The notes under the pieces were generated by a model. The model was not told the origin of the DNA, did not search any database, and worked only from the letters and a program-made list of their open reading frames with translations. Source: Escherichia phage vB_EcoM_SYGD1. From it: a stretch of DNA of 64,000 nt. Shown piece by piece: positions 37,964-58,959 of the stretch. Made by a program: the position numbers and the translations under genes. The stretch lies in sequence record MW883059. One strand, 5' to 3'. The first letter of the stretch is position 1. The number at the start of each line of letters is the position of its first letter.

Positions 37964-38648
<685 letters not shown>

Positions 38649-38660
38649 TTTCACAAAGTT

Positions 38661-38690
38661 GTTTACACGGGGTTTTAGTTGTGATACTAT
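38661..38690 (+). promoter_or_regulatory. T4-type early promoter cassette
   Basis: GTTTAC at 38661, extended -10 tgtgatactat; preceded by AT-rich UP-like tcacaaagtt. Confidence 0.6.
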
Positions 38691-38726
38691 TACCCTATCA
38701 AAACAAATGAGTGATTGGAGAATAAA

Positions 38727-38999
38727 ATGAAAACATTTAAAGAATTTATCAATGAAGCTACTTTTAACGAAAAAGTAAAAATTAGCAAAGCTGTCAAGAC
38801 TTTGATTGCTGACATCAATTACCTATATGATATTGATTTAACTGACTATGTAACAGTTGGTAACAAACGTAACTATTTCGTGTTTGACATCTCTGAACTT
38901 GACCAGAATCAAATTAACAACATTGAGCGTTTTGCTAATGATAGGGGTCTTCGACACGAGCCTGGTGGCTATAAAAAATACGCAATTTATTTAAAATGA
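38727..38999 (+). CDS. internal-protein-like protein with capsid-targeting-like N-terminus
   Basis: ORF track 38715 (TTG); ATG at 38727 after SD ggag; N-terminus MKTFKEFINEA fits the internal-protein targeting peptide consensus. Confidence 0.55.
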   Translation: MKTFKEFINEATFNEKVKISKAVKTLIADINYLYDIDLTDYVTVGNKRNYFVFDISELDQNQINNIERFANDRGLRHEPGGYKKYAIYLK

Positions 39000-39029
39000 G
39001 TTTACTTTTAGATAGGGTAGTGATACTAT
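39000..39029 (+). promoter_or_regulatory. T4-type early promoter cassette
   Basis: GTTTAC at 39000, -10 region tgatactat inside stem AGATA...TATCT. Confidence 0.6.
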
Positions 39030-39059
39030 TATCTCATCAAAATTAATTAGGAAAATAAA

Positions 39060-39371
39060 ATGAAAACATTTAAAGAATTTATCAATGAAGCGGCTGCTGC
39101 ACCAAAGACATTCGTTATTAATACTCAAGCGAGTCTTGATGATGAGTACGCGGAGGCAATTCTGAAGTCACTTGCTAAGAACGGCGTTGAAGTAATTGCT
39201 TCGGACTTTAAGAAAGGGGCTTCCGAGATGTTTATTTCTATAACTAAAGGATCTAAAGCTAAGATTAAATCATCATTCGGAGTTGCTCGTACCGATCAAA
39301 TCGACAATCATGACTTTAAACAAACTGGTGCTAAACGGCAGAATACGATTGCATCACGCGGAATAAAATAG
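39060..39371 (+). CDS. internal-protein-like protein with capsid-targeting-like N-terminus
   Basis: ORF track 103 aa; N-terminus MKTFKEFINEA identical at nucleotide level to the preceding gene for 33 nt. Confidence 0.55.
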   Translation: MKTFKEFINEAAAAPKTFVINTQASLDDEYAEAILKSLAKNGVEVIASDFKKGASEMFISITKGSKAKIKSSFGVARTDQIDNHDFKQTGAKRQNTIASRGIK

Positions 39372-39382
39372 TTTATAAAACC

Positions 39383-39412
39383 GTTTACTTTTAGATGGGG
39401 TAGTGATACTAT
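39383..39412 (+). promoter_or_regulatory. T4-type early promoter cassette
   Basis: GTTTAC at 39383, -10 gtgatactat inside stem GGGTA...TACCC. Confidence 0.6.
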
Positions 39413-39440
39413 TACCCTATCAACTACTGAGGAGAATAAA

Positions 39441-39626
39441 ATGAAACGTTGTGAATTAATTCGAAATGTTGCTATTGCAATTTCTGCTTCCGCTTTTAGT
39501 TTTTCAATGTTTGTTGGATTTATATGCGGATTATTAACTACAGCAGAAAATGTGTTTTCACTTGTAGTAGCATTTTTAATTGGTTTAATCGCTATCGTTA
39601 TGGATAAAATTTCTAAAGGTGAATAG
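39441..39626 (+). CDS. small two-helix membrane protein
   Basis: ORF track 61 aa; two hydrophobic segments; SD gaggag. Confidence 0.5.
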   Translation: MKRCELIRNVAIAISASAFSFSMFVGFICGLLTTAENVFSLVVAFLIGLIAIVMDKISKGE

Positions 39627-39627
39627 A

Positions 39628-40008
39628 ATGTACAAAGTGTATGCGGATTATCAGGCTAATCCATCTGAAAAGCCAGGTTGTCAAATTGGATGGGCTCATG
39701 ATACTTTGCTTGAAGCAGTAGATGCTGCTCAAAAATTGGGGTATAAATATGTAGAGATTGTTCAACCGTCAGGAAAAGTTATTACTCTTGAAGAGTTCAA
39801 TAACATTAAACCAAACTTTTTACTTTTTGCAGGTGATAATTATTATCCTCGTGGTGGATATGCTGATTTAATCGCGAAAGCCGCTACTGAAGATGAACTT
39901 CGTGACATTATCAAAGAAAATGAAAACAAACCAGATTATGGTTCTAATCGCTTTGATTGGTGGCAAATCGTAAATGCCAATACGCATACTATTGTTGATG
40001 AAGGCTGA
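39628..40008 (+). CDS. hypothetical protein
   Basis: ORF track 39619 (GTG); ATG at 39628 after SD aaaggtga. Confidence 0.5.
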   Translation: MYKVYADYQANPSEKPGCQIGWAHDTLLEAVDAAQKLGYKYVEIVQPSGKVITLEEFNNIKPNFLLFAGDNYYPRGGYADLIAKAATEDELRDIIKENENKPDYGSNRFDWWQIVNANTHTIVDEG

Positions 40009-40010
40009 TA

Positions 40011-40301
40011 ATGATTCTTTATGCGAAAGTATCATCCATTGAAAATGGATATAAATATGATCAAGACGCGGCTAAAGCCTTGATTGACGATTATGGCATT
40101 TTAACATGTTTTGAAGTTGAAAAGGTTTACATTGACCGTTCATCTTCTCAAGTTAAATTAGTGAAGGAAGACCGTAAATTTAATACAGTAAATTTTGATT
40201 TCTTTATTGAAACAGAAAAAGGTCCTCTTGAATATGATATTTTCAAGAATCCTTTGGGTCTTGAATGTATTAAATATACTTACATTAATGCAGCGTGGTG
40301 A
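40011..40301 (+). CDS. hypothetical protein
   Basis: ORF track 96 aa; ATG start. Confidence 0.5.
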   Translation: MILYAKVSSIENGYKYDQDAAKALIDDYGILTCFEVEKVYIDRSSSQVKLVKEDRKFNTVNFDFFIETEKGPLEYDIFKNPLGLECIKYTYINAAW

Positions 40302-41405: not shown

Positions 41406-41477
41406 GGCCCTGTAGCTGGAAGGTTCAAGCAAGCGACTCATAATCGCCAGATGGTGGTTCAATTCCACCCAGGGCCA
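41406..41477 (+). tRNA. tRNA with CAU anticodon (T4 tRNA-Ile homolog; Met by anticodon alone)
   Basis: acceptor ggccctg/cagggcc, anticodon loop ctCATaa, T-arm ggtgg-ttcaatt-ccacc. Confidence 0.7.
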
Positions 41478-41518: not shown

Positions 41519-42184
41519 ATGTTCCATTACACTTATAAAATAACAAATAAAATTAATAATAAAATCTATATAGGCGCTCATTCTACCGAAAATTTAGATG
41601 ATGGATATATGGGTTCTGGTAAATTATTAAAAAGAGCCCAAGACAAGTATGGTATAGAAAATTTCTCTAAAGAAATATTAGAGTTCTTTGACGATAAAAC
41701 CTCTATGTTTGAGTCAGAAAAGAATATTGTGACTGAAGAGTTTTTAAAGCGCCCTGATGTTTATAATTTGAAATTAGGTGGTGAAGGTGGTTGGGACCAT
41801 TTAAACACTAAAGAATATTTGGATAAAAAGAAAGAAGCTTCCTTAAAAGGGGCTGCTGCTTTTAAAACCAGATTTGAGAACGACCCAGACCTTAAAGAAA
41901 AATATCGTAAAATGGGTTCAGAAAGGTTTAAACAGCTTTGGGATAATCCTAAGTATAGAGAGAAATTTTTAAATATTAAATCTTTATTGGGTAAGACCCA
42001 TACTCCTGAAACTATTAATAAAATGAAAGAATCTCACGCCAGAAATAAACACCAACAGGGCGAAAAGAATTCCCAATTTGGTATGATGTGGATTCATTCA
42101 TTAGATGAAAAAGTTTCTAAACGTATTAAGAAAACTGACCCAATTCCAGAAGGATGGTTTAAAGGTCGAAAAATGAAATTTTAA
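41519..42184 (+). CDS. segB: GIY-YIG homing endonuclease embedded in the tRNA cluster (SegB-like)
   Basis: ORF track 221 aa; TYKITN ... KIYIGAH GIY-YIG motifs; position between tRNA subclusters as T4 segB. Confidence 0.75.
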   Translation: MFHYTYKITNKINNKIYIGAHSTENLDDGYMGSGKLLKRAQDKYGIENFSKEILEFFDDKTSMFESEKNIVTEEFLKRPDVYNLKLGGEGGWDHLNTKEYLDKKKEASLKGAAAFKTRFENDPDLKEKYRKMGSERFKQLWDNPKYREKFLNIKSLLGKTHTPETINKMKESHARNKHQQGEKNSQFGMMWIHSLDEKVSKRIKKTDPIPEGWFKGRKMKF

Positions 42185-42187
42185 TTA

Positions 42188-42264
<77 letters not shown>

Positions 42265-42582: not shown

Positions 42583-42610
42583 GCCCCGACCGAAAGGTTG
42601 GGGCTTTTTG
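42583..42610 (+). terminator. Intrinsic terminator
   Basis: GCCCCGACC-GAAA-GGTTGGGGC followed by ttttt. Confidence 0.7.
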
Positions 42611-42611
42611 G

Positions 42612-42619
42612 TATAAATA
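42612..42619 (+). promoter_or_regulatory. Late promoter TATAAATA
   Basis: tataaata directly after the terminator, 40 bp upstream of the 42659 ATG. Confidence 0.5.
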
Positions 42620-42658
42620 TAGTAGTATATTAAATCACGAATTAAAACAGGAAATAAG

Positions 42659-43117
42659 ATGAAATCATATGCTCAATTTTTAAATGAAGCATCCGCTTCA
42701 GATGTTCGCGCTGTAGCAACTGCTGCTATTAAAGCTGGTAAATATTCTTATAAAGATGCTTCTGACGAATCTCGGTACAAGTTCTACGACGATATGAGAG
42801 CTGAAGGCTTTGTGGGTAACTATGTTACCACCGCCTGGAAAAGCCTGGTTGCTACTGGTGCGGCTTTCGAAAAACCTTCTGGTAAACCTGCTCCTAAGGC
42901 TGACCCTAAAGCAGCACAAGAAAAAAATATTGCTAAAGGAATTATTTCTAGGTATGAAGCAATTCTTAAAGAACTTTTGGTAATTAAGACCGAAGGCCAG
43001 AAACTTGCGCGAGCTCATAGTTTCAAAGATAACCCACATGCTCATGACCTAGAGTATGTTGAAGATCTCCAAAAAATCATCAAAGACCGCATTTGGTCTG
43101 CTAAACAAATTAAATAA
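42659..43117 (+). CDS. internal-protein-like protein with capsid-targeting-like N-terminus
   Basis: ORF track 152 aa; N-terminus MKSYAQFLNEA; SD aggaaataag. Confidence 0.5.
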   Translation: MKSYAQFLNEASASDVRAVATAAIKAGKYSYKDASDESRYKFYDDMRAEGFVGNYVTTAWKSLVATGAAFEKPSGKPAPKADPKAAQEKNIAKGIISRYEAILKELLVIKTEGQKLARAHSFKDNPHAHDLEYVEDLQKIIKDRIWSAKQIK

Positions 43118-46296: not shown

Positions 46297-46827
<531 letters not shown>

Positions 46828-46831
46828 AGTT

Positions 46832-46862
46832 GTTTACTTTCTCCAAGTAACTGTGATAGTAT
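46832..46862 (+). promoter_or_regulatory. T4-type early promoter cassette
   Basis: GTTTAC at 46832, -10 tgtgatagtat. Confidence 0.55.
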
Positions 46863-46887
46863 ATTCACAGTTACTTGGAGGGATAAA

Positions 46888-47304
46888 ATGACTCGTATTA
46901 ATTTGACTTTAGTATCTGAACTTGCTGATCAACATTTAATCGCAGAATACCGTGAACTGCCGCGTGTTTTTGGTATAGTTCGTAAACATGTTGCAAATGG
47001 TAAGCGGGTTAAAGATTTTAAAATATCTTCCGAGTTTATTTTAGGTTCTGGTCATGTCACGTTCTTTTACGATAAGTTAGAATTTTTGCGAAAGCGTCAA
47101 TCAGACATTATAACGGAATGCTTAAAACGCGGATTCAGTATAAAAGATACTGAAGTTCCTGACATCAGTGATATTCCAGTAGAATGGAAAAATGATTATA
47201 ATCCATGCAAATCAGCTATTAGGTTGAGTCAACAACGACTCGATGAAAAAATTTTAATGAAGCCACACTGGTACAAGTATTACGGCAAAAATATTTACAT
47301 TTAA
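46888..47304 (+). CDS. denV: endonuclease V, pyrimidine dimer DNA glycosylase
   Basis: ORF track 138 aa; [17 protein letters not shown]...WYKYYGK recognisable as T4 DenV. Confidence 0.9.
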
Positions 47305-53829: not shown

Positions 53830-53859
53830 GTTTACTTTCCATTTGAGCTGTGATACTAT
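53830..53859 (+). promoter_or_regulatory. T4-type early promoter cassette
   Basis: GTTTAC at 53830, -10 tgtgatactat. Confidence 0.6.
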
Positions 53860-58929: not shown

Positions 58930-58959
58930 GTTTACAGTAGGGTAGTAGTGTGATACTAT
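58930..58959 (+). promoter_or_regulatory. T4-type early promoter cassette
   Basis: GTTTAC at 58930, -10 tgtgatactat inside stem GGGTA...TACCC; same cassette as at the internal-protein-like locus. Confidence 0.6.

Follow-up and report, generated by a model that had tools for sequence, protein, structure and literature searches.

Among the described counterparts of the genes reported here are those that encode the internal proteins (IPs) of phage T4. According to the Black memorial review, a leader made up of the first 10 residues of IPIII is enough to direct a protein to the head and can package foreign proteins, with residues 4 and 7 of the leader determining targeting, residues 8 and 10 determining processing, and the gp21 prohead protease cutting after L/I-X-E (PMC9026906). 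T4 IPII and IPIII both begin with MKTYQEFIAE followed by Ala (Y4, F7); the leader of T4 IPI is 19 residues long, begins with MKTFKEF (F4, F7) and ends with TITE, again followed by Ala. The processed forms IPI*, IPII* and IPIII* have isoelectric points of 9.0-9.65. Each of the three proteins, also designated Ip1, Ip2 and Ip3, inhibits a distinct GmrSD type IV restriction enzyme without cross-protection (PMC12373910). The known target of Ip1, an injected inhibitor, is the GmrSD enzyme of E. coli CT596, and those of Ip2 and Ip3 are the GmrSD enzymes of ECOR21 and of ECOR17.

The T4 genome carries exactly one gene, ipI, between 57B and trna.4, and the tandem genes ipII and ipIII reside at the e-denV locus. 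These two tandem genes have an identical 33-nt leader plus the Shine-Dalgarno sequence in common, and therefore the occurrence of tandem IP genes with a common 5ʹ module and unrelated cargos is a feature of T4 itself. As recounted in later papers, Repoila et al. (1994) described polymorphic IP loci in which a reusable leader is joined to diverse cargos, and more than 30 IP variants were known to Arbiol et al. in 2010 (PMC2839356). The latter authors relate that Repoila et al. saw promoter/stem-loop elements at two highly variable IP loci that are similar to the PeSL (promoter-early stem-loop) elements of phages RB49 and phi1 (PMC2839356). These IP-associated elements are built around T4 early promoters and carry weaker, AT-rich stems, and Arbiol et al. 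consider them to be analogues, and not homologues, of PeSL (PMC2839356).

Two tandem genes at the ipI locus

We analysed a stretch of 64,000 nucleotides from Escherichia phage vB_EcoM_SYGD1 (MW883059), which is called the window in the following sections. Its sequence is that of a Tequatrovirus, with matches to 820 phage records, the best of which is phage HMD-9 at 98.5% identity. The gene at 38193..38648 (plus strand) encodes an Acb1 anti-CBASS phosphodiesterase (Pfam PF23474, E = 2.6e-60) at the position of T4 57B, and bounds the ipI-type locus on its left side. The right flank is formed by a trna.4-like gene at 39441..39626 (plus strand), which encodes a 61-aa predicted membrane protein without a targeting leader (phrog_1692, 6e-35) and is located where trna.4 resides in T4. 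Genes resembling trna.3 and trna.2 follow, and then a cluster of eight tRNA genes. An earlier note on this DNA had equated this locus with that of ipI in T4, between 57B and the tRNA cluster, and the T4 gene order 57B-ipI-trna.4 bears out this placement. The two genes described below thus occupy one of the two polymorphic IP loci.

Between these flanks are two open reading frames (ORFs) on the plus strand, at 38727..38999 (90 aa) and 39060..39371 (103 aa), whose products both start with MKTFKEFINEA. As the earlier note had claimed, these tandem genes are identical over their first 33 nt, or 11 codons. The exact DNA identity between their 5ʹ ends extends to 38 nt (38721-38758 and 39054-39091), and this sequence has two matches in the window compared with none in 100 dinucleotide-preserving shuffles. 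A somewhat longer block, present on the plus strand at 38717..38758 and again at 39050..39091 (repeat family D1), comprises the Shine-Dalgarno sequence, a spacer and codons 1-11. Its two copies agree at 41 of 42 nt, and the sole mismatch resides in the Shine-Dalgarno sequence, which is GGAG for the first gene and GGAA for the second. Past codon 11, only 3-7 of every 15 nt are identical, as expected by chance in AT-rich DNA. When profiles of the two protein families were compared with hhalign, the alignment was likewise limited to 13 leader columns, in agreement with the claim that the sequences diverge wholly after codon 11.

Database comparisons make it almost certain that the two genes are ip9 and ip7. 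The product of the first ORF is assigned to phrog_7673, annotated as ‘internal head protein’ (1.6e-53); its cargo exhibits 90% identity to RB15 Ip9 (UniProt Q38376), and the protein is ~77% identical to the products of genes annotated as ip9 in phages VR5, VR20 and VR25. The product of the second ORF is assigned to phrog_2667, which carries the same annotation (8.3e-42), is 99% identical to RB32 Ip7, and also matches proteins designated Ip7 from several phages. The GenBank record for RB32 (DQ904452), which dates from 2006, has the gene order 57B-Ip5-Ip9-Ip7-tRNA.4. Its entry for Ip9 reads ‘similar to RB15 and K3 Ip9, flanked by 43 bp direct repeat, along with Ip7’, and the entry for Ip7 refers to Ip9 in the corresponding way. 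The window therefore resembles RB15, K3 and RB32 in its Ip9 and Ip7 families, its locus, the order of Ip9 then Ip7, and the direct repeat of ~43 bp. It differs from RB32, which has an additional Ip5 gene upstream, and the window Ip7 contains an additional Ala beyond the cleavage site relative to the proteins of this set.

The earlier note had considered the two cargos to be unrecognised, and hence candidates for novel effectors. This proposal was wrong, because both are named variants that PHROGs lists as internal head proteins and whose 43-bp repeat was annotated in RB32. A search for already characterised variants, which the note had named as a way to overturn its proposal, thus succeeded with respect to identity (Ip9 and Ip7), but not with respect to function. 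The arrangement, a discovery of 1994, has since entered GenBank and PHROGs as an annotation and was taken up again in experiments in 2025, and so it is real but ordinary. A search of the literature by name for Ip7 as an internal protein returned no relevant paper, as the other matches were unrelated inositol-phosphate papers.

The leaders of Ip9 (codons 1-10, 38727-38756) and Ip7 (codons 1-10, 39060-39089) agree with the published rules for capsid targeting, in that both carry F4, F7, I8 and E10 followed by Ala. The suggestion in the earlier note that this peptide fits the T4 capsid targeting sequence is well founded, given the comparable starts of T4 IPI, IPII and IPIII and the gp21-type ending of I-x-E before Ala. 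Residues I8-N9-E10, followed by A11, constitute the only [LIV]-x-E-[AGST] site in each of the two proteins, and this is the predicted gp21 site. Cleavage at this position would produce a mature Ip9 of 80 aa (from 38757, ATFNEK...; 9.4 kDa, pI 8.2) and a mature Ip7 of 93 aa (from 39090, AAAAPK...; 9.9 kDa, pI 9.65), which are small and basic like the mature T4 proteins.

The two genes resemble T4 ipI in their locus between 57B and trna.4, in the first seven residues (MKTFKEF) of their products, in the type of promoter/hairpin cassette found upstream, and in encoding a small basic mature protein. However, their leaders are 10 residues long, rather than the 19 of IPI, and the IPI cargo, which has no sequence relationship to theirs, is assigned to another PHROG family. 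Ip9 and Ip7 resemble T4 IPII and IPIII in having a 10-residue leader that ends with x-E before Ala, and in being encoded by tandem genes with identical leaders and unrelated cargos, but they differ from them in leader sequence and in locus.

Promoter and hairpin cassettes and their probable exchange

Each of the two genes, as well as the trna.4-like gene that follows, is preceded by a plus-strand cassette in which a T4-early-type promoter overlaps a predicted hairpin. Cassette 1 (38661..38701), a member of repeat family D2, carries GTTTAC at 38661-38666, the extended -10 element TGATACTAT at 38682-38690, and a hairpin at ~38669-38695. A promoter scan reads this region as TTTACA, a 17-nt spacer, and TACTAT with TG, and the predicted fold has a free energy of -13.3 kcal/mol (z = -2.2). 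Cassette 2 (39000..39040), which serves as the reference copy of family D2, carries GTTTAC at 39000-39005, TGATACTAT at 39021-39029, and a weak hairpin at 39011-39038 (-7.3 kcal/mol, z = -0.7). Cassette 3 (39383..39423), with a promoter and a strong hairpin at 39394-39421 (-16.1 kcal/mol, z = -3.7), closes the ip7 unit and would drive the next gene.

The earlier note had described the promoters of the two genes as identical and their promoter/stem-loop cassettes as nearly so, which is an overstatement. Cassettes 1 and 2 exhibit 68% identity, with the -35-like GTTTAC and a 12-nt extended -10 block (GTGATACTATTA) in common, and their stem sequences differ. Cassette 3 is 90% identical to cassette 2, and it precedes the trna.4-like gene that lacks a leader. 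The hairpins are predicted to overlap the -10 region and have AT-rich or mixed stems, and a terminator scan of positions 38100-40100 found no intrinsic terminators. As with the PeSL elements of RB49 and phi1, a conserved promoter and stem-loop flank small accessory genes, and the elements could act as homology patches for modular shuffling (PMC2839356). Unlike PeSL, the window elements have the T4-early form GTTTAC...TGATACTAT with a hairpin of variable strength, and the sigma-70-like early promoter with a GGGG...CCCC terminator stem-loop that characterizes the PeSL type was not found among them. In T4, the 5ʹ half of the region upstream of ipI is nearly identical to cassette 1, whereas the 3ʹ half matches cassette 2. 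Judged by these alignments, the T4 ipI upstream region is a mosaic of the two window cassettes.

Comparison of the locus across T4-like genomes for cassette swapping, a check that the earlier note had proposed, revealed that its content differs from phage to phage. Between 57B and trna.4, T4 carries ipI; RB32 carries Ip5, Ip9 and Ip7; the window and HMD-9 carry Ip9 and Ip7; UFV-AREG1 carries ipI, Ip9, Ip7 and a 74-aa IP; and VR5 carries ip8 and ip9. In VR5, the ip7 family is found instead at the second locus, in the order e-ip3-ip7-denV. The leader also varies within a single cargo family, which indicates that the junction between leader and cargo is a recombination boundary. For example, the Ip9 leader is MKTFKEFINE in the window, MKTYQEFINE in UFV-AREG1, MKTYQEFISE in RB15, and MKTYQEFIAE in other family members. 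In addition, the identity of the two leaders in the window includes synonymous sites, and this points to recent recombination or gene conversion, rather than to selection at the protein level alone. The ip9 and ip7 leaders of UFV-AREG1, unlike those of the window, differ from each other at several positions.

These comparisons bear on the possibility that the common block has no role beyond that of a linker for recombination and a site of translation initiation, and that the proteins act early in the cytoplasm and are not packaged. The early-type promoter upstream would suit such proteins, as would the leaderless homologues of the Ip9 domain that start small-gene operons in siphoviruses, and the identity of the block at synonymous sites speaks for recombination rather than for selection on the protein alone. 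However, the leader variants found across genomes (FK versus YQ; INE, ISE, IAE or IVE) differ in both DNA and protein and yet in every case keep the experimentally established determinants (residues 4, 7, 8 and 10) together with the Glu-Ala junction. When this constancy is considered together with the sufficiency of the first 10 residues of IPIII to package foreign proteins (PMC9026906), an exclusively cytoplasmic role becomes highly improbable. By analogy with the T4 proteins, Ip9 and Ip7 are instead very probably packaged, processed and injected. An observation that runs against this reading is that only an early-type promoter is evident upstream of the two genes, yet prohead assembly is a late event. 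A search of the open-access literature found no proteomic report on Ip7 or Ip9.

Cargo domains and proposed function

Structure prediction and remote-homology searches of the cargos, which the earlier note had also recommended, yielded distinct topologies. The AF2 model of mature Ip9 is confident (pLDDT 89.5, pTM 0.77) and has the order alpha-beta-beta-alpha-beta-beta. The model of mature Ip7 is of moderate confidence (pLDDT 73), with a beta-alpha-beta-beta-alpha-beta core followed by a low-confidence basic tail, in which the motif G..RQNTI...G is kept even in homologues at 52% identity. Both models match generic folds only. Pfam scans of the two proteins gave nothing meaningful, and PDB sequence-profile searches with the Ip9 and Ip7 family alignments produced no match below E = 0.4. 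Similarity of either protein to the IPI*, Ip2 or Ip3 cargo was not found in sequence or in fold.

A recent tandem duplication, after which the coding parts diverged beyond recognition and the 5ʹ end was conserved, could in principle create two adjacent genes of the same orientation and similar size with an identical 5ʹ block. We give almost no weight to this origin, and the restriction of the profile-profile alignment to leader columns effectively refutes it. The predicted topologies also differ, and each cargo belongs to its own family with a separate distribution, as is evident from the placement of ip7 at a different locus in VR5 and from the fact that the Ip9 domain has homologues outside the T4-like phages whereas Ip7 has none. 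An exhaustive HMMER search for the Ip7 cargo among 1.84 billion representatives recovered only 3 clusters, indicative of a narrow family without distant relatives, and every named Ip7 match that we saw is from a T4-like phage of enterobacteria.

Beyond the T4-like phages, the Ip9 domain occurs as leaderless proteins of 63-80 aa in siphoviruses of ~43-58 kb, where the genes stand at the start of operons of small genes. Examples include Bas70, Seuratvirus KS_S4, and many metagenomic contigs. The domain also forms the C-terminal portion (residues 887-945) of a 964-aa Kuttervirus protein (phrog_7673, 2.9e-8). A Foldseek search of BFVD with the Ip9 model returned one real match, a 535-aa viral protein with an Ip9-like C-terminal domain (E = 4.7e-6), and the remaining matches were noise.

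Thus, the domain is encountered in three settings: without a leader in siphoviruses, behind the T4 leader and a linker of ~8 residues, and at the C-terminus of proteins of 535-964 aa from Kuttervirus-like phages. One speculative account, which we regard as unlikely, is that the Ip9 cargo is a mobile domain of ~72 residues that existed before it came to be injected, such that T4-like phages captured a cytoplasmic counter-defence module and added ten codons for pre-loaded delivery. If this account is true, the target would be a defence that hosts of multiple phage groups have in common, and it need not be GmrSD. This would fit the negative GmrSD assays described below. The leaderless siphovirus proteins, which count against the reading of Ip9 as a packaged protein, imply that the Ip9 domain can presumably work without packaging. 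This distribution also offers a concrete experimental handle, as the leaderless homologues are suited to plain plasmid expression.

Overall, we consider it quite probable that Ip9 and Ip7, as members of the polymorphic T-even IP set, operate in the following manner. In each gene unit, a promoter of the T4 early type, which overlaps a hairpin, is followed by a ribosome-binding site, the 10-residue capsid targeting sequence (MKTFKEFINE) and finally a small, basic cargo that is unrelated between the units. If experiments with T4 IPI, IPII and IPIII are a guide, the leader would dock the protein within the prohead scaffolding core, after which gp21 would cut behind I-N-E and the leader would be lost. 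The mature proteins of 9-10 kDa would then stay with the packaged DNA and be injected with it. If the cargos behave like Ip1, Ip2 and Ip3, each would bind one specific host nuclease and block it, thereby sparing the modified phage DNA from cleavage on entry. The promoter/hairpin and Shine-Dalgarno/leader blocks that flank every cargo would serve as homology patches. Recombination there would swap, add or delete cargos, both from one phage to another and from one IP locus to the other.

The individual components of this proposal differ in their strength. We lean towards Ip9 and Ip7 being specific counter-defence inhibitors, as are the T4 proteins, and the position of the anti-CBASS gene acb1 adjoining ip9 was counted in favour of this role. 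That their target is a GmrSD-family enzyme is somewhat doubtful, and is partly disfavoured for the variants tested. Silas et al. (2025) cloned ip4-10 and assayed them against a GmrSD panel without reproducible inhibition (PMC12373910), and an apparent signal between ip7 and CLS_011 failed on repeat (PMC12373910 Supplementary Fig. 9). The sequence strings of the window Ip7, Ip9 and the 152-aa protein described below were not found in the searched text of the supplements of that study. Unlike T4 Ip1, Ip2 and Ip3, for which targets are known, Ip9 and Ip7 are orphan effectors even after these assays against GmrSD variants. As a discovery the arrangement counts for little, since the polymorphic IP loci, the reusable leader, the direct repeat around Ip9 and Ip7 and the anti-restriction role of IPs had each been published or annotated, and the value that is left is practical.

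The lack of a GmrSD target for ip4-10 would also be expected if Ip9 and Ip7 were packaged for structural reasons, to condense or organise DNA or to aid core assembly, with no specific host target. Such a role was for a long time suggested for T4 IPII and IPIII. It would be compatible with the basic mature forms of Ip9 and Ip7, with the ~300 copies of T4 IPs per head and their binding to DNA at low salt (PMC9026906), and with the head-assembly aberrations of IPIII mutants (PMC9026906). However, a structural role leaves unexplained why the cargos adopt unrelated folds, why close relatives acquire or lose them so freely, and why the second IP locus of the window phage is empty. Moreover, all three T4 IPs were once called structural and now have specific nuclease targets. 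A purely structural role is thus distinctly improbable, and specific inhibition of a host defence is the function that we favour.

The second IP locus and a leader-bearing gene elsewhere

The e-denV locus, which accommodates ipII and ipIII in T4, contains no IP gene in the window phage. A spacer of 60 nt lies between gene e (46333..46827) and denV (46888..47304), and it is composed of one promoter/hairpin cassette like that found upstream of T4 ipIII (-29.7 kcal/mol, z = -7.6).

An additional ORF with a leader of this type was encountered at a third place. This ORF (42659..43117), which is located between a tRNA-Arg gene and e.8 and is preceded by a GC hairpin and a TATAAATA box, encodes a 152-aa protein that begins with MKSYAQFLNE followed by Ala, in agreement with all of the rules for capsid targeting sequences, and whose mature form has a pI of 9.4. 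The matching interval of T4 carries rnaC and rnaD and has no such gene. A search for virion proteomics on a Yersinia phage homologue of the protein yielded no usable data. The ORF is present in 511 phage records, and all 30 of the sampled rows list it as ‘hypothetical protein’ or give no annotation. This leader-bearing gene is therefore widely conserved and carries no IP label in public records. The unusual IP repertoire of the window phage, with only Ip9 and Ip7, an empty second locus and the leader-bearing 152-aa gene, could guide host-range experiments.

A third candidate locus for an internal protein

The two classical internal protein (IP) loci, 57B to trna.4 and e to denV, may not be the only places in the window that encode such proteins. 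A 152-aa ORF on the plus strand (42659..43117), with tRNA-Arg (42188-42264) on one side and the e.8 homologue on the other, begins with MKSYAQFLNE followed by A. This N-terminus conforms to the capsid-targeting rules, with the determinants Y4, F7, L8 and E10|A all present, and the predicted mature form has a pI of 9.4. It is preceded (~42583-42625) by a hairpin rich in GC and by a TATAAATA box that resembles a T4 late promoter. The ORF may encode an internal protein that has so far gone unrecognised, at a third locus; T4 carries no counterpart in the corresponding interval.

The ORF falls in phrog_2280 ('unknown function'). Homologues are present in 511 phage records; 30 rows were sampled, and each of them reads 'hypothetical protein' or carries no annotation. 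The leader motif is retained in distant homologues, as is observed for O157tp3 (MKSYAEFLTE) and Yersinia phage fHe-Yen9-01 (MLEYSEFLKE). The record for the RB32 homologue, RB32ORF133c, notes that it is 'flanked by 34 bp imperfect direct repeat'.

The neighbouring tRNA cluster is interrupted by a segB-like GIY-YIG homing endonuclease of 221 aa (41519..42184), which is inserted between tRNA-Met/Ile (41406-41477) and tRNA-Arg, the same place as in T4 and RB32. The former tRNA, with its CAU anticodon, is called 'Met' by ARAGORN, whereas it is tRNA-Ile in the T4 and RB32 records.

The empty e-denV locus and its cassette

In T4, ipIII and ipII occupy the e-denV locus, whereas vB_EcoM_SYGD1 carries no IP gene between e (46333..46827) and denV (46888..47304), and therefore lacks Ip2 and Ip3 homologues. 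The 60-nt spacer (46828..46887) consists of one promoter/hairpin cassette (GTTTAC...GTGATAGTAT) with a 19-bp stem (-29.7 kcal/mol, z = -7.6), and it closely resembles the cassette located 5' of T4 ipIII. A lone cassette is the expected remnant of a deletion via recombination between flanking cassettes. Judged by sequence, its promoter part is a general T4-early element rather than one specific to IP genes, because the strong early-promoter pattern, GTTTAC-N(12-17)-TGATACTAT, has two further exact matches outside the IP loci (53830..53859 and 58930..58959).

Cargo domains and neighbourhood of Ip9 and Ip7

The Ip9 cargo domain (38775-38996) has homologues outside T4-like phages at 36-49% identity. 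Leaderless examples are found in the sequence stretches from Bas70 (L003:2507-2725) and Seuratvirus KS_S4 (L005:2492-2716). Some of the homologues are free-standing proteins of 72-74 aa that lack the leader and are encoded close to the start of small-gene operons in siphoviruses; the siphovirus copies probably received their label 'internal head protein' through erroneous annotation transfer. The domain also forms the final ~75 residues of a 964-aa protein, Kuttervirus allotria gp082 (phrog_3867 plus phrog_7673; L006:3294-6188), whose N-terminus, MAIPSFLNFLEE, loosely resembles a targeting leader, and it is present in a 535-aa BFVD protein.

Disorder (pLDDT < 50) is predicted for the C-terminal tail of Ip7 (residues ~84-103; 39330..39368). 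Despite this prediction, the motif G..RQNTI...G is kept in Dhakavirus homologues at 52% identity, which suggests that the tail is not simply passive but carries a binding motif.

The gene immediately upstream of the IP cassettes encodes Acb1 (T4 57B; 38193..38648), an anti-CBASS cyclic-nucleotide phosphodiesterase, so that the IP locus has a further counter-defence gene as its neighbour. In many phage records the Acb1 gene is still listed as 'RNA ligase'.
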